From contig JBJXGV010000073.1 in the NCBI GenBank assembly GCA_046160485.1, positions 12,076 to 76,075 of the forward strand: DNA of 64,000 nt, written 5' to 3'. Every line of letters begins with the position of its first letter. Positions within the stretch are counted from its first letter, which is position 1. A program made the position numbers and the translations under genes. Of this stretch, positions 12,683 to 63,121 are shown one piece after another. The notes beneath the pieces were generated by a model, which ran no database searches, had not been told where the DNA came from, and saw nothing but the letters and a program-made list of their open reading frames with translations. This DNA comes from a bacterium. Its GTDB lineage: Bacteria > Orphanbacterota > Orphanbacteria > JBJXGV01.

Positions 12683-12894
12683 GTTGAGGACGCCGCTGGC
12701 GGGGCACGGATAAAACAATAGCAAATAGGCTATTAGGACAACGATGGTCGTTTAGATTCGAAACGGGGGCGGCATGGCCGCTGCGGACACTACGCCGAAA
12801 CGGCGCGAGAAATTGCGGAGTCAAGCGCCGCAATGGCTGAGGTGCGAGCCATGTTTGGCACACGAATCACCCGTCGCAGAGCGGGTGCGACGGG

Positions 12895-14397
12895 TTACTC
12901 GTGCTCGGAGTGTTCGGGGTGCGTCCCCTCGGGATCCGCGCCCGGGAGTTGCCCCATCGCCTCGATGAGCGCAGCGCGGAGTTCGTCCGGCCGGTGGGAA
13001 ACCTCGAAGATGTCCGTCGAGTACTTGAACTCGGGGTCGTGATGATCCCGGTGACACGACCGGCACATCTTCTCTGTAACCGGTTCGAGCGCGAAGTGAG
13101 GCTTCACGGTCCGGTCGCCGCCGCTCGTGATCAGCTCGTAGTGCTCCTTCCCCGGCCCGTGGCAGATCTCGCACTGGACGTTCACGAGCTTCGGTGTCAC
13201 GTCTTTGTGGCGGAAGCCGTTCCAGTGGCCGAAGCCCGTCACGTGGCATCCGACGCACTCGGGGTCGGTATCCACCTCTTCCTTCACCATCGTTTCCCAC
13301 GCGGTTGCGTGGCGCGTCGTCAGCCACTGCTCGTGTTCCTCCGTGTGGCATCCCATGCAGGTCTCGACGCCGAGGTACATTTCCTTGTCCATGTCAGGCC
13401 AGTCCGGGATGATGTTCGCCTTTCGAATCGCGTTTCGATAATCGGTGACGAGCTTCAACATCGATTCATCATCCGGGTACGTGTCGGTGAGCGCGACGAG
13501 AGTTGCGACCGACCCAGTGACCTTCTTCTGCGGCGAGACCTTCGACTCGAGGATAGCGACCATCCGCCCCTGGTCCCCAGGCTGGATGATGCACGTCTTG
13601 CCCACGAAAACCGGCTCCTTGTTTCGGAAGTTCCCATGGCCGACGAGCATGAGGTCGATTCCGCCGACGCTGCGCGCGATCTCCTTCGCGACGTTCATGC
13701 CGGTGTGGGCGATGCAGATGATGATGTCCGTCTTGCCCCGCAACTCTTGCACCGCCGATCGCGCCGCGACGAGCGGGTCTTTGACGATCAACTCGCGATC
13801 GCCGTCTTTCTTCGGGGCGATCTTGGAGCCCTCGTCGAGCATCATGACGCTCGTCACGCCCACGCGTGCTCCTCCCACTGGAATTCCGAGCATGCTGCGC
13901 GCGCCGAGGCGCGTCGTCGCATACGGCTTCGTGAAGAGCTCGCCGCTTTCGGCATCGTGCAGGTTCGCGCAGATGAGATTGAGGCCCTTGCGGTTCGTCA
14001 GATCGAGGATGTAGTTCTGCCCCTGCAGGAGATCGAGTTCGCCGAGGCCGCAGATCTCGTAGCCGAGCTGCTTGAGCCCTTCGTAGTAGTACTCGGCCTT
14101 GATCGAGTCTTGCAGCTTCTCGCCGCTGATGTTGTCGCCCCCGTCGAGCAGCATGACCATTCCGCGCTCGCCGAAGTTTTTTGCCGCGATGTACGCTGCG
14201 CGTCGTGGCAGACCGCCCGACTGAGCGTGGCTTCAACCACAGGGTTCGAGGTAGCCGAGCGCGTCCGATGAAAAGAAGACGCGAAGCTTCGACATGTCGA
14301 CGTCGGAAGTGCCCGAACACGAAGTGATGACGGCGGCCGCTACCACCACGATGAACCCGAACACCGCCGCGGGCGTTCGCCCGTTCCATTTCTTCAT
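12895..14397 (-). CDS. Lipoprotein: 5'-nucleotidase-like metallophosphatase fused to a tetraheme cytochrome c domain. A single in-frame TGA at 14233..14235 interrupts the frame and is a candidate selenocysteine codon
   Basis: From the ATG at 14397 the N-terminus reads MKKWNGRTPAAVFGFIVVVAAAVITSCSGTS...VFFSSDALGYLEPCG-[TGA]-SHAQSGGLPRRAAYIAAKNFGERGMVMLLDGGDNISG. This gives a signal peptide plus lipobox, then a degenerate metallophosphatase motif I, then the canonical 5'-nucleotidase motif II (GGL...LLDGGDN) in the same frame on both sides of the TGA. The C-terminal third carries four CxxCH heme sites (CMGCH, CVGCH, CEICH, CRSCH). A hairpin GUCG-GGC-GGUCU-GCC-A-CGAC begins 11 nt after the UGA. 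Confidence 0.6.
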
Positions 14398-14454
14398 AGC
14401 GTCATCCTACACCGGATCCGATATCTGGTTTCGAGTTCATTCTCGCGAGTTCGC

Positions 14455-18917: not shown

Positions 18918-20309
18918 ATGACAGAGCCCACGGACTCCGGAAAACCCGTCTACTTCGAAAACGTTCTTGCCGCCGTCGGCAACACGCCGCTCGTGCGCTT
19001 GAACCGCATCGTCGGCAAACACGACTCCCTTCTCCTCGCGAAGATTGAAAGCTTCAATCCCGGCGGCAGCGTCAAGGATCGCATCGGACGCAACATCGTC
19101 GACGAGGCCGAGAAGAGCGGACGGCTCAAGCCCGGCGGAACGATCGTCGAGGCGACGTCCGGCAACACGGGCGTTGGTCTCGCACTCGTCGCGGCGGTGC
19201 GCGGCTACAAACTCGTCTGCGCGATGCCGGACAAGATGAGCAAGGAGAAGATCAATCTGCTGAAGGCGTACGGCACGCGCGTCGTGGTTTGTCCGACGAA
19301 CGTCGCGCCGGACTCGCCGGACTCGTACTACGAAGTGGCGCGGCGCATCGCGCGCGAGACACCGAACGCGATCCTCGCGAACCAGTATCACAATCAGGAG
19401 AACCCGCGCTCGCACTACATCTCGACCGGCCCCGAGATTTGGCGGCAGACGGCGGGAAAGATCACGCACTTCGTCGGCGGAATCGGGACAGGCGGAACGA
19501 TGAGCGGTACCGGGCGCTATCTGAAAGAGATGAATCCGAACGTCAAAGTGATTTGCGCGGATCCGGAAGGATCGATCCTGAAGGAATATTTCCTGACGAA
19601 GAATATCGGTGAAGCGCGGCCTTACCTCATCGAGGGGATCGGCGAGGACATCATTCCGACGACGGTTCACTTTCAGTATTTCGACGAGATTCGCAGTATC
19701 AACGATCGCGAGGCGATCGACATCACGCGGCGACTCTCGCGCGAGGAAGGGATTCTGATCGGAACGAGCGGCGGCGCGGCGGTTGTCGCGGCGTGCCAGG
19801 TTGCGCGCGAAACGTCCGCTGACGCGGTCATCGTCGTCATTCTTCCGGATTCTGGCGAGCGCTACCTCTCGAAGGTTCACAACGACGCTTGGATGCAGGA
19901 CCAGGGACTGCTCTCGGCGAATGCCGTGTCGCTGCGCGAGGTGGTCGCGAGGAAGTCGGCGAGCATTCCGCGGCTCATCACCGCCGATGCCGCGGATACG
20001 ACGCGAATCGCCGTGGCAATCATGGAGCAGCACAACGTCTCGCAGCTTCCGATCGTCGAGGGCGGCGATCTTGTCGGCGCGATGTCGGAGGCTGGCGTGA
20101 TGGGTGCGGCGCTGCGCGATCCGGGGCTGCTCAACAGAGCGTGCCGCGACACGATGGAGCCGCCGTTCCCGCGCGCGCAGGCCGAAGAGAGCGTACAGCG
20201 AGCGATCGATCTGTTCACGAAGGGCGCCCATGCGGTGATTGTCGAAGACGCGCGGTCGCCGGTTGGGATCGTCACGCGCTTCGACGTGCTCGGGATCGCC
20301 GCAAACTGA
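18918..20309 (+). CDS. Cystathionine beta-synthase (PLP fold-type II catalytic domain plus C-terminal CBS pair)
   Basis: It has the PLP-Lys region NPGGSVKDR, the GNTG loop, and a C-terminal Bateman (CBS) domain pair (VSQLPIVEGGDLVGAMSE...). Confidence 0.85.
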   Translation: MTEPTDSGKPVYFENVLAAVGNTPLVRLNRIVGKHDSLLLAKIESFNPGGSVKDRIGRNIVDEAEKSGRLKPGGTIVEATSGNTGVGLALVAAVRGYKLVCAMPDKMSKEKINLLKAYGTRVVVCPTNVAPDSPDSYYEVARRIARETPNAILANQYHNQENPRSHYISTGPEIWRQTAGKITHFVGGIGTGGTMSGTGRYLKEMNPNVKVICADPEGSILKEYFLTKNIGEARPYLIEGIGEDIIPTTVHFQYFDEIRSINDREAIDITRRLSREEGILIGTSGGAAVVAACQVARETSADAVIVVILPDSGERYLSKVHNDAWMQDQGLLSANAVSLREVVARKSASIPRLITADAADTTRIAVAIMEQHNVSQLPIVEGGDLVGAMSEAGVMGAALRDPGLLNRACRDTMEPPFPRAQAEESVQRAIDLFTKGAHAVIVEDARSPVGIVTRFDVLGIAAN

Positions 20310-20394
20310 AATCGCTCACATCGATCCACTCCGGTAGTGCGCGCAGCTCGCGGTCGGCGCGGCATGCCGCTGCCAAACAACAACGCGAGGTGAC

Positions 20395-21564
20395 ATGACG
20401 CACGACGACGACTTCAGCACACGGCGGTTTGCGACGCGCGCTATCCACGCCGGCCAGTCGCCCGACCCCACGACCGGCGCGATCATTCCGCCGATCTACC
20501 AAACATCGACATTCGTCCAGTCCGAGATCGGCGTTCACAAGGGATACGACTACTCGCGCGCGGGGAACCCGACGCGTACGGCGCTCGAGAAGAACGTGGC
20601 GTCGCTCGAGGGCGCGCGTCACGGCGCGGCGTTCGCGTCGGGCATGTCGGCGATCGACGGCATTCTTCGCTCCCTGCGCGCGGGCGATCACGTCGTCTCC
20701 GGCAACAATCTCTACGGCGGCTCGTTCCGGCTTTTCCGTCAGGTCCTCGAGAAGTTCGGTCTCGAATTCTCCTTCGTCAATACGTCGGATTTGGGGGAGA
20801 CGAAGCGCGCGATTCGTAAGAACACGCGCGTGCTCTTCATCGAAACGCCGACGAATCCGATGATGATTGTTTCCGACATCGCCGCGCTGGCGCAGATCGC
20901 ACGCGAAGCGGGGGTGCTGCTCGTCGTCGACAACACGTTTCTCTCGCCCTACTTTCAGCAGCCGATTGCGCTCGGCGCGGACGTCGTCGTCCACTCGTCG
21001 ACCAAGTATCTCGGCGGACACTCCGACATCATCGGCGGCTTCGTCGCGACCAACGACGATGCTATGGCCGAGCACCTCGCGTTCATTCAGAAGGCCGTCG
21101 GTGCCGTGCCCGCGCCATTCGACGCGTGGCTCATCCTGCGCGGCACGAAGACGCTCGCGGTTCGCATGAAGCAGCACGAGGAAAACGCGCGCGCGATCGT
21201 GGGATTCCTCGCGGAGAGCGGCCCCGCGCGGGGCGTACAGAAGGTGCTCTATCCGGGTCTGCCGGGCCACCCGGGTCACGAGATCGCGAAACGCCAAGCG
21301 ACGGGATTCGGCGCGATGATTTCGTTCGTCGTCGAGAGCCGCGCCCGCGCGGCGGAGATCATTGGCAGGATGCGCGTTTTCTCGCTGGCCGAGAGCCTCG
21401 GCGGCGTCGAAAGCCTCGTCTGCCATCCGGGAGAGATGACGCACGCCAGTGTCGCCGCGGCGGAACGCGAGCGAATCGGTATCTCCGATGGAATGATTCG
21501 CCTGTCGGTCGGCATCGAAGACAAGGAAGATCTGCTCGCCGATCTCGCGGAGTCCCTCAGCTAG
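20395..21564 (+). CDS. Cystathionine gamma-lyase / gamma-synthase family (Cys/Met metabolism PLP enzyme)
   Basis: Fold-type I motifs are present: NPTRTALE, the PLP-Lys context HSSTKYLGGHSD, and a C-terminal SLGGVESLV. Confidence 0.85.
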   Translation: MTHDDDFSTRRFATRAIHAGQSPDPTTGAIIPPIYQTSTFVQSEIGVHKGYDYSRAGNPTRTALEKNVASLEGARHGAAFASGMSAIDGILRSLRAGDHVVSGNNLYGGSFRLFRQVLEKFGLEFSFVNTSDLGETKRAIRKNTRVLFIETPTNPMMIVSDIAALAQIAREAGVLLVVDNTFLSPYFQQPIALGADVVVHSSTKYLGGHSDIIGGFVATNDDAMAEHLAFIQKAVGAVPAPFDAWLILRGTKTLAVRMKQHEENARAIVGFLAESGPARGVQKVLYPGLPGHPGHEIAKRQATGFGAMISFVVESRARAAEIIGRMRVFSLAESLGGVESLVCHPGEMTHASVAAAERERIGISDGMIRLSVGIEDKEDLLADLAESLS

Positions 21565-62659: not shown

Positions 62660-63121
62660 ATGCCCGCGATCAACGTCGGCGATGCCGCTCCCGATTTCAC
62701 GCTACGGGATCATATGCGGAACGATGTGACGCTCTCTGCGTTCCGCGGCCAGAAGAAAATCGTGCTCGCGTTCTATGTGTTCGCGTTCACCGGTGGCTGA
62801 ACTCGCGAGCTGCAGGCCTACCAGCAGAACGTAAGCGCGCTGGAAGCGGCCGACACCCAGGTTCTGGGTGTGAGCATGGACAGTCCATTCGCGAACAAGG
62901 CGTTCGCCGAATCGATCGGCGTCACGTTCCCGCTCTTGAGCGATTGGGGAGGCGATGTGACGCGCGCGTACGGCGTCTACAACGAAAAAGAGAAAGCGCC
63001 GCGCCGCGTGACGTATCTCATCGACAAGACCGGCAAGGTGACGTCGATGCAAGTCGACAAGGACGCGGTGGATCCGACAGCGATCGTGACCGAGTGCACG
63101 ATCGGCGCGCCGAAGAAGTAA
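62660..63121 (+). CDS. Peroxiredoxin (Bcp/PrxQ-like) with an in-frame TGA at the peroxidatic-cysteine position, a candidate selenocysteine-containing PrxU-like protein
   Basis: A GGAGGAGGAAG RBS precedes MPAINVGDAAPDFTL...KKIVLAFYVFAFTGG-[TGA 62798..62800]-TRELQAYQQNVSALEAADTQVLGVSMDSPFANKAFAES... The two tracked ORFs 62582..62800 and 62870..63121 are in the same frame and together reconstitute a full-length Prx. Its F-T-x-x-C-T-x-E active-site motif reads F-T-G-G-U-T-R-E. Confidence 0.65.

Follow-up and report, generated by a model that had tools for sequence, protein, structure and literature searches.

The closest described relatives of the protein considered here are the UshA-like proteins, catalogued as a CxU selenoprotein family by Zhang and Gladyshev in 2008 (PMC2398784) and listed again in reviews of 2022 and 2026 (PMC9312934, PMC13188914); a literature search found no experimental study of selenium incorporation or function for any member of the family. 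In NCBIfam the family is described by NF041198 (UshA_like_PCGU, "UshA-like (seleno)protein"), a two-part profile in which positions 3-274 constitute the UshA-like part, followed by a linker (275-400) and a tetraheme part. In most of its members the RNA hairpin downstream of the UGA spans G-G-L-A-R-R-A and has its loop ~28 nt after the UGA. A separate model, NF049981 ("UshA-like (seleno)protein family 2"), has the motif CxxU and comprises 262 positions without a cytochrome part. UshA, CD73 and SoxB have an N-terminal metallophosphatase fold homologous to that of the protein, and cytochrome c554 of Nitrosomonas, a free periplasmic carrier, harbors four CXXCH motifs. As for the RNA, the SECIS element of E. 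coli fdhF has a 4-nt loop closed by an A:U pair, an unpaired U bulging from its 5' arm and a lower stem long enough to extend to the UGA.

The gene analyzed here lies on the minus strand of a 64-kb stretch of DNA (the window), and its features are as follows:

14405..14408, minus strand: putative AGGA Shine-Dalgarno-like motif, read from the sequence, 7 nt 5' of the ATG at 14395..14397
12895..14397, minus strand: UshA-like (seleno)protein coding sequence, 499 residues plus a TAA stop, with predicted read-through of UGA at codon 55
14317..14397, minus strand: signal peptide with lipobox ITS-C (Cys27), the sole export signal of the heme domain
14233..14244, minus strand: P-C-G-U motif, residues 52-55, with the putative Sec codon TGA at 14233..14235
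14202..14221, minus strand: SECIS-like hairpin, with 5' arm 14215..14221, loop GGUCU 14210..14214 and 3' arm 14202..14209, including a bulged A at 14206
13429..14286, minus strand: UshA/5'-nucleotidase-like metallophosphatase-fold domain, residues ~38-323 (NF041198 3-274), with a remodelled active site
13018..13389, minus strand: tetraheme cytochrome c554-like domain, residues ~337-460 (PF13435, E 5.6e-14; NF041198 401-519)
13345..13359, 13243..13257, 13159..13173 and 13051..13065, minus strand: four CXXCH motifs, at residues 347, 381, 409 and 445

Translation of 12895..14397 gave a single 500-codon frame whose sole internal stop is the TGA at 14233..14235 and which terminates in TAA, confirming the initial annotation, which had described one minus-strand frame with a signal peptide, a lipobox and this in-frame TGA. 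The N-terminus, MKKWNGRTPAAVFGFIVVVAAAVITSC, holds the signal peptide and the lipobox I-T-S-C (Cys27 at 14317..14319), the latter being retained among orthologues as L/S-x-C (e.g., LSC, TSC and ASC), and the residues flanking the internal stop read ...VFFSSDALGYLEPCG-TGA-SHAQSGGLPRRAAYIAAKNFGERGMVMLLDGGDNISG.

The protein matched NF041198 with an E-value of 1.6e-76 (258 bits), and no rival family came close, the next match being SoxB with 70 bits against a cutoff of 550. Both parts of the profile were matched, the C-terminal 182 residues aligning to positions 401-519, though the linker at 275-400 found no counterpart. The family motif is present as YLEPCG-U-SHAQSGGLPRRA, i.e., P-C-G-U followed by GG-x-x-RR, and the protein further resembles the family in its two-part architecture, in the placement of P-C-G-U/C at the same column and in the alternation of Sec and Cys. 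NF049981 showed a weak likeness over the N-terminal ~80 residues (50.5 bits), far from its cutoff of 140 bits. The initial annotation had proposed a candidate new selenoprotein, a fusion of a nucleotidase-like lipoprotein with a cytochrome; this claim of novelty fell away, since the profile of the existing family already includes the tetraheme part and its CxU listing is of long standing. Because the family is already catalogued, in NCBIfam as in the published selenoprotein lists, the finding is ordinary for selenoprotein biology and constitutes a gene-model correction and no new kind of selenoprotein. What is modestly new is a clade that falls just under the model cutoff, its truncated GenBank annotation and a SECIS-like element lying ~10 nt closer to the UGA.

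The curated cutoff of NF041198, 275 bits, was reached neither by the protein nor by its orthologue L001 (256.8 bits), while more distant relatives above it include L094 (301.6 bits), L008 (281 bits), P0014 (293.5 bits) and P0048 (305.5 bits), the last of which carries the NCBI name "UshA-like (seleno)protein". Because the clade scores just under this cutoff, GenBank truncates the gene to a 419-aa cytochrome: entry MFN0152568.1 covers the final 419 codons only and is labelled "multiheme c-type cytochrome". The same truncated call was found in every metagenome from which orthologues were fetched, and when the full-length protein was looked up with X in place of residue 55, no exact match turned up in the sequence collection. 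The truncation conceals both the selenocysteine and the export signal, and so the practical value of the finding is in annotation, as adding this clade to the NF041198 seed or lowering the cutoff would mend the gene call.

The public gene calls amount to a different reading of the locus, in which a 54-aa lipopeptide ends at the TGA and an independent "multiheme c-type cytochrome" of 419-421 aa starts at a downstream ATG. GenBank and all metagenome gene callers split the locus in this manner, and a pair of ATG codons is indeed present at 14160 and 14154. We nevertheless consider two genes very unlikely, as the split severs the first beta-strand with motif I and the PCGx loop from the rest of their domain, and Cys-containing homologues run uninterrupted through the position of the TGA. 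Moreover, the 72 nt between the TGA and the downstream ATG are conserved as in-frame coding sequence (SHAQSGGLPRRAAYIAAKNFG), and no sigma-70-like promoter was found between the two; a promoter and terminator scan likewise yielded nothing relevant on the minus strand. The downstream product would also be devoid of a signal peptide. Attachment of c-type hemes takes place only after export, which requires such a peptide, and so its absence from the downstream frame counts in favor of one gene.

We examined the site of the TGA in relatives of the protein. Orthologue DNA was fetched protein by protein, with P0006 left out; a metagenome scan with the single protein gave 2 loci, and a related-locus search with a 9-sequence alignment gave relatives of at most 34% identity among the matches listed. 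In each of the 11 distinct orthologues, whose identity ranges from 36 to 87%, the TGA occupies the identical codon in the identical frame, and coding sequence is conserved to either side of it; it is thus a conserved feature of the gene. Among 63 distinct sequences of the family, drawn from many phyla, P-C-G is followed by TGA in 30 and by a Cys codon (TGT/TGC) in 33, answering the question raised in the initial annotation as to whether Cys or Sec occupies this position in homologues: the two alternate. At the protein level, the motif ends in U in 38 of 70 aligned family sequences and in C in the other 32. These 70 were retrieved with a pattern requiring [PS]-C-[GN]-[C/stop], and so the invariance of P-C-G among them is largely built in, the search pattern itself having demanded the motif. 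In alignment A1, full-length homologues spanning the site carry Cys within G-x-L-E-P-C-G-C, the exception being P0077, which has S-C-N-C. Together, these comparisons strongly support the assignment of selenocysteine to the in-frame TGA.

The same data bear on the two plain alternatives offered in the initial annotation. A pseudogene that arose through a nonsense mutation would account for an in-frame stop within a conserved domain, and yet the stop is always TGA, never TAA or TAG, and is accompanied by no frameshift in the 11 distinct orthologues, down to 36% identity, or in the 30 distinct sequences across phyla. Coding constraint is evident on both flanks, and orthologues differ synonymously right before the TGA (e.g., TGT/TGC and GGT/GGC). 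The scattered stops and frameshifts of a decaying gene are thus missing, which effectively refutes a pseudogene and leaves it exceedingly improbable. A sequencing or assembly error at 14233..14235, conceivable a priori with nothing further in its favor, is contradicted by the orthologues carrying the same codon and by the separately assembled Logan contig SRR28962025, which matches the window base for base over 2,564 bp, the TGA among them, though its sample may be the one from which the window's MAG was derived; we regard the chance of such an error as negligible.

We then turn to the RNA. In the bSECIS model, a stem-loop stands just downstream of the UGA, with its apical loop ~16-37 nt from it and a G in the first loop positions. 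The hairpin GUCGGGC/GGUCU/GCC-A-CGAC has a 7-bp stem, begins exactly 11 nt past the UGA, as reported in the initial annotation and confirmed here at 14221..14202, and forms within the minimum-free-energy fold. Its GGUCU loop begins 18 nt after the UGA, in keeping with the model, and synonymous change in it is suppressed: the apex codons GGC-GGT-CTG are invariant, compared to 16 of 95 4-fold sites (17%) gene-wide, and GGT is the rarest Gly codon (18/380). Against this stands the overlap of a large part of the hairpin with the codons of a conserved peptide, S/A-G-G-L-P-R-R. The hairpin is conserved, the same fold being found in 7 of 8 clade orthologues, and in these 8 the stem shows one compensatory change (U:A to G:C) and a bulge that moved via paired synonymous changes. 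A formal count gave one covarying pair, a number equalled by 63 of 500 shuffles and hence not significant, and for this reason we relied on the conservation of synonymous sites.

Folding energy was less informative. The z-scores of the hairpin, -0.2 to -0.9 over 50-60 nt and -1.8 for the 20-mer, are not above chance at 64% GC, but since the authentic fdhF SECIS itself folds at z = -1.33 only, we did not count this against it. As energy alone does no better than chance, support for the hairpin comes from the comparative data. RNA downstream of the site is more stable in Sec-forms (mean -17.3 kcal/mol, z -1.13) than in Cys-forms (-12.4 kcal/mol, z -0.09), the Sec-forms also being GC-richer (0.68 vs 0.62). 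Rfam scans, using both gathering and E-value thresholds, detected no RNA family at the hairpin, the sole match being a chance one to chrB-a (14.2 bits), an outcome of little weight.

The likeness to fdhF, described in the initial annotation as an 11-nt distance and a GGUC loop, proved accurate upon comparison to a 46-nt fdhF SECIS string that is matched at 100% by fdhF in 5,419 of 5,426 E. coli genomes. Both RNAs have an 11-nt spacer, a 7-nt 5' arm and GGUC at nt 22-25, with the U of UGA as nt 1; they share the heptamer GGUCUGC, and the G23/U24 of the fdhF-type loop are present here. Unlike fdhF, the hairpin of this clade has a 5-nt loop closed by a C:G pair, an unconserved lower stem and, within its 3' arm, a bulge that is A, U or C. 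Relative to the rest of the UshA-like family it lies ~10 nt nearer the UGA, and the clade has Pro in place of Ala in GGL(A/P)RR.

A second gene of the window bears on the use of selenocysteine in this genome:

62660..63121, plus strand: peroxiredoxin, second probable selenoprotein gene, in which TGA 62798..62800 replaces the peroxidatic Cys (FTGG-U-T)

TGA is an ordinary stop in this genome, as it terminates 7 of the 37 other genes in the window, and among 16,575 codons no in-frame TGA was found besides those of the UshA-like gene and the peroxiredoxin, both at redox positions that align with Cys. In L097, an orthologue of the peroxiredoxin, this codon is likewise TGA, and gene calls reduce dozens of close homologues to C-terminal fragments of 103 aa. 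The gene thus lends indirect support to Sec decoding in the genome, and selenocysteine is probably used in two or more proteins of the uncultured soil lineage to which it belongs (nearest named relatives Candidatus Eisenbacteria). Alternatively, recoding or read-through of the UGA could insert a standard amino acid, be it Trp, Gly or Cys, and need no Sec machinery. In line with this, none of selA, selB, selD and tRNA-Sec was found within the 64-kb window, although this is a small sample of the genome and hence uninformative, and some database homologues of the peroxiredoxin show W at the Sec position, suggesting that some pipelines translate TGA as Trp. However, the use of TGA as a stop, the lack of further in-frame TGA codons, the alignment of the TGA with Cys only and the conserved hairpin at SECIS distance all argue against such recoding, which we judge to be hardly probable.

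The reading we prefer, and consider highly probable, is that of a single gene for a lipoprotein that belongs to the known UshA-like (seleno)protein family and receives selenocysteine at the UGA of codon 55 via the hairpin. SelB and tRNA-Sec would decode this codon, drawn to it by a short hairpin within the gene; the loop of this hairpin, 18 nt past the UGA, would stand in the same register as that of the E. coli fdhF minihelix. Counting against this reading are the score under the curated cutoff, a folding energy and a covariation that are not significant, the absence of selA, selB, selD and tRNA-Sec from the 64-kb window, and a hairpin placed unlike that of most of the family. The mature exported lipoprotein would then consist of a 5'-nucleotidase-fold domain and a cytochrome c554-like tetraheme domain. 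The identity of the latter is borne out by its four CXXCH motifs and by its match to cytochrome c554 (PDB 1BVB, E 1.9e-22); as opposed to that free carrier, it forms here the C-terminal domain of a lipoprotein.

The N-terminal domain matches the N-domains of 5'-nucleotidases in the PDB (E about 1e-31; 7d0v, 6.7e-32; 1ush, 9e-23) and that of SoxB (2wdc, 1e-18). Compared to 5'-nucleotidases, it keeps the equivalents of the Asp of motif I, the Asp of motif II and the His of motifs IV and V, whereas the motif I His is replaced by Leu, the Asn of GNHE by Glu and the catalytic His by Leu. It also differs from these enzymes in having a Cys-Gly-Sec insertion and in carrying the tetraheme domain instead of a C-terminal substrate domain (no PF02872 match). 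The full set of dimetal ligands, the His-Asp dyad and the nucleotide-binding C-domain of a functional 5'-nucleotidase/UshA are thus not found. The initial annotation, which spoke of a "canonical" nucleotidase motif and placed the Cys-Gly-Sec triad beside a dinuclear metal site, was therefore correct in part: metallophosphatase motifs are present and the loop is near retained residues, but several of the canonical residues for metal binding and catalysis have given way to others, which makes a standard dinuclear phosphoesterase site unlikely.

From these features we infer a periplasmic redox enzyme and no nucleotidase. In a fold that has lost the His of motif I, the Asn of GNHE and the catalytic His, and that is without the nucleotide-binding C-domain, the Cys53-Gly-Sec55 loop would lie beside Asp45, Asp88, Glu120, His231 and His254, all of them retained, where the Cys/Sec pair may cycle through a selenenylsulfide or ligate a metal, with electrons exchanged through the four hemes. 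Apart from nucleotidases and phosphodiesterases, the homologous family nearest to it is SoxB, which makes a compound of sulfur or selenium a reasonable guess for the substrate, and the UshA-like family as a whole is a reasonable target for experiments on biochemical function. A more far-reaching proposal, which we hold to be rather unlikely, is that Sec acts as ligand or partner of a metal center wired to the four hemes, making this an undescribed selenium-metal redox enzyme on a phosphoesterase scaffold, and that in this soil Eisenbacteria-like clade the SECIS was rebuilt ~10 nt upstream after the change of Ala to Pro destroyed the ancestral hairpin. The proposal starts from a metal-binding constellation that the Sec-forms, unlike the Cys-forms, keep: of the 38 Sec-forms, 29-34 have Asp45, Asp88, Glu120, His231 and His254, while of the 32 Cys-forms only 7-13 retain Asp88, His231 and His254, and 15 retain Asp45.

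Translation of 12895..14397 on the minus strand bore out the single reading frame with an in-frame UGA described in the initial annotation, its 500 codons being interrupted solely by the TGA at 14233..14235 (codon 55). The frame contains the following features:

5' of the TGA, minus strand: lipoprotein signal peptide (…AAAVITS-C27), then …LRVFFSSDALGYLEPCG
Past the TGA, minus strand: continuation in the same frame, SHAQSGGLPRRAAYIAAKNFGERGMVMLLDGGDNISG…
3' end of the frame, minus strand: four CXXCH heme-binding motifs, then a TAA stop
14221..14202, minus strand: hairpin GUCGGGC-GGUCU-GCC(A)CGAC, 11 nt 3' of the UGA, present in the minimum-free-energy fold

Directly 3' of the TAA stop lies a 9-bp GC-rich hairpin (12870..12894, minus strand; CCCGUCGCA…UGCGACGGG), which is terminator-like but has no U-rich tail, and for which the scanner made no terminator call.

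With Cys in place of the stop, the protein matched NF041198 (NCBIfam UshA_like_PCGU, UshA-like (seleno)protein) in a profile search (E 1.6e-76, 258 bits), a model whose name includes PCGU, the exact motif flagged initially. The last 182 residues, searched alone, matched NF041198 profile positions 401-519; the model also spans the cytochrome, and the nucleotidase/cytochrome "fusion" is therefore the usual architecture of this family. A Pfam search saw only the c554-like tetraheme domain (PF13435), and a profile built from the family matched, among solved structures, 5'-nucleotidase N-terminal domains (E about 1e-31), SoxB (E 1e-18) and cytochrome c554 (E 1.9e-22). The family was listed as 'COG0737, UshA-like', with the motif CxU, by Zhang and Gladyshev in 2008, who gave 76 sequences with Sec and 92 with Cys from the GOS metagenome (PMC2398784), and recurs in a 2022 review (PMC9312934) and in a 2026 review that cites NF041198 (PMC13188914); a literature search for experimental work on it found none. 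The proposal of a new selenoprotein is thus not supported; the gene belongs instead to a catalogued family, as a slightly divergent member that lacks annotation, and its SECIS element is remodelled locally. GenBank has just the truncated downstream ORF, as a 419-aa 'multiheme c-type cytochrome' (MFN0152568.1), so the initial gene model corrects the public annotation. This truncated call is consistent with the protein's score, which lies below the 275-bit cutoff of NF041198.

We then weighed the reading of the UGA as selenocysteine against a pseudogene, a sequencing error or two separate genes. Close homologues in the protein database are all calls of ~420 aa truncated at the N-terminus, and in more distant, full-length homologues the aligned position, within a near-invariant G-x-L-E-P-C-G-C motif, is Cys. 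At the DNA level, TGA occupied the same codon in 11 of 11 distinct orthologues, whose identity ranges from 87% to 36%; all of them kept the frame and the coding sequence 5' of the TGA, with a lipobox wherever the upstream sequence was complete. A codon survey covered at least 80 loci from species-representative genomes plus metagenome loci; among those listed, the codon after P-C-G was TGA in 30 distinct sequences (Sec-forms) and TGT/TGC in 33 (Cys-forms), the Sec-forms including MAGs labelled Eisenbacteria, Krumholzibacteriia, Fibrobacteraceae, Cytophagia, Myxococcales and Deltaproteobacteria as well as several unclassified bacteria. A sequencing error is further opposed by a separately assembled Logan contig, whose 2,564 bp of overlap with the window, TGA included, are identical. 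In this genome TGA serves normally as a stop: it ends 7 of the 37 predicted genes in the window, and across the 16,575 codons of these genes no in-frame TGA was found besides two at Cys-aligned redox positions. As for two genes, attachment of c-type hemes requires prior export, for which the ORF starting 3' of the TGA has no signal peptide; biologically, only read-through gives a sensible product. The second of the two in-frame TGAs belongs to another gene:

62660..63121, plus strand: AhpC/TSA peroxiredoxin, probable selenoprotein, with TGA at 62798..62800 at the peroxidatic Cys

This gene is preceded by an AGGAGG ribosome-binding site, reads FYVFAFTGG-U-TRE around the TGA and aligned end to end, across the TGA, with thiol peroxidase models. 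Its orthologue in assembly GCA_043724225.1 (L097) has TGA at the same codon, and gene calls reduce dozens of its close homologues to C-terminal fragments of 103 aa. Three 'full-length' protein homologues (P0125, P0143 and P0158) read FTGG-W-, with Trp at the very position of Sec, which suggests that some pipelines applied an alternative genetic code to a TGA rather than that a real Trp codon is present. The hairpin downstream of its TGA (CUGC-A-GG-CCUA-CC-A-GCAG) is weak. Taken together, these agreeing lines leave virtually no room for a pseudogene, a sequencing error or two genes, and the UGA at codon 55 very probably encodes selenocysteine, as first proposed. The 64-kb window itself contains no selA, selB, selD or tRNA-Sec.

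The hairpin was confirmed, by position and folding, to start 11 nt after the UGA. Taken alone, it is statistically ordinary for sequence of 64% GC (z between -0.2 and -0.9), and folding energy decides neither way, since the authentic fdhF element reached only z = -1.33 in the same test. The likeness to fdhF noted initially proved right: the 46-nt fdhF SECIS string matched fdhF at 100% in 5,419 of 5,426 complete E. coli genomes, and GGUC lies at nt 22-25 from the U of the UGA in both folded RNAs. The two share spacing and loop sequence but differ in bulge position and loop closure.

The hairpin is also conserved, the 20 nt folding identically in seven of the eight distinct sequences of the window's clade. 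In two orthologous loci (L001 and L093) both bases of the second pair have changed, from U:A to G:C, and in two others (L090 and L092) paired synonymous changes (CCA-CGA to CCC-AGA) shift the bulge; L087 retains just the upper four pairs. Covariation by formal count is weak (pairing in 94.6% of cells, one covarying pair, 63 of 500 shuffles equal), and most of the hairpin doubles as code for a conserved peptide, S/A-G-G-L-P-R-R. We therefore turned to synonymous sites: at 95 four-fold-degenerate codons with an amino acid invariant across eight orthologues, the third base was invariant in 16 (17%), against which the three consecutive codons of the upper stem and loop, GGC-GGT-CTG, were all invariant. 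GGT is the rarest Gly codon in these genes (18/380) and is invariant nowhere else. Against this background, the invariance indicates selection at the RNA level on the hairpin apex, as judged from codon comparison.

Most other Sec-forms, at loci from other phyla, have a different, stronger hairpin, with a 9-bp stem, a GGA or GGC loop and codons for G-G-L-A-R-R-A; in one example, GACUCGCCC-GGA-GGGCGAGUC, the loop lies about 28 nt past the UGA. Cys-forms have no hairpin of this type. Among the loci listed, the downstream fold averaged -17.3 kcal/mol in Sec-forms versus -12.4 in Cys-forms (z -1.13 versus -0.09), though part of the gap in raw energy may stem from the higher GC content of the Sec-forms (0.68 versus 0.62). 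In the window's clade, Pro replaces Ala (GCC to CCN), so the ancestral stem is lost, and its hairpin is shorter and about 10 nt nearer the UGA; a functional hairpin appears to have re-formed about 10 nt upstream of the ancestral one, making this clade an example of SECIS relocation inside coding sequence.

By its sequence, the protein is an exported lipoprotein with an N-domain homologous to the 5'-nucleotidase metallophosphatase domain, a c554-like tetraheme C-domain and an incomplete nucleotidase catalytic apparatus. Aligned with solved 5'-nucleotidases, it has Leu47 for the motif I His, Glu120 for the GNHE Asn and Leu121 for the catalytic His, and it has no nucleotide-binding C-domain, but it retains Asp45, Asp88, His231 and His254. 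Among 70 aligned family members, selected by a pattern itself requiring [PS]-C-[GN]-[C/stop], these four residues and Glu120 were kept in 29-34 of 38 Sec-forms, whereas in the 32 Cys-forms Asp88, His231 and His254 were mostly lost (kept in 7-13) and Asp45 was kept in 15. This pattern, confounded by phylogeny, is suggestive of Sec use tracking retained metallophosphatase-type ligands. We infer a periplasmic redox enzyme rather than a hydrolase; its Cys53-Gly-Sec55 loop would cycle through a selenenylsulfide or supply ligands to a residual metal site, with electrons passing through the four hemes. Setting aside the nucleotidases and phosphodiesterases, the closest homologous family is SoxB, so a reasonable guess at the substrate would be a compound of sulfur or selenium.

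Upstream, the gene has a HEAT-repeat/cyclophilin protein and RtcB as neighbours, and downstream HSP20; three relatives' loci (L001, L004 and L093) share this synteny. These neighbours gave no hint at the selenoprotein's function. In the window, HSP20 directly follows the selenoprotein gene, without the inserted gene (512-624 aa) present directly downstream in the relatives:

L004, 4644..6182: Metallophos (PF00149)
L093, 4264..6051: Metallophos (PF00149)
L001, 4272..6146: 624-aa product, no Pfam match

The inserted gene may be a paralogue or functional partner of the selenoprotein. Elsewhere in the window (18918..21564, plus strand), a cystathionine beta-synthase-like gene (PALP and CBS domains) adjoins a Cys/Met-metabolism PLP enzyme, a transsulfuration pair with no evident tie to selenium metabolism. 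The window's FtsH matches MFN0152595.1 at 100% identity, and its closest named relatives are Candidatus Eisenbacteria (68-71% identity). In the heuristic gene list, the 37 predicted genes end in TAG (21), TAA (9) and TGA (7). In GC-rich bacteria TGA is normally the most frequent stop and TAG the least frequent; these counts are unusual for a genome of 64% GC.
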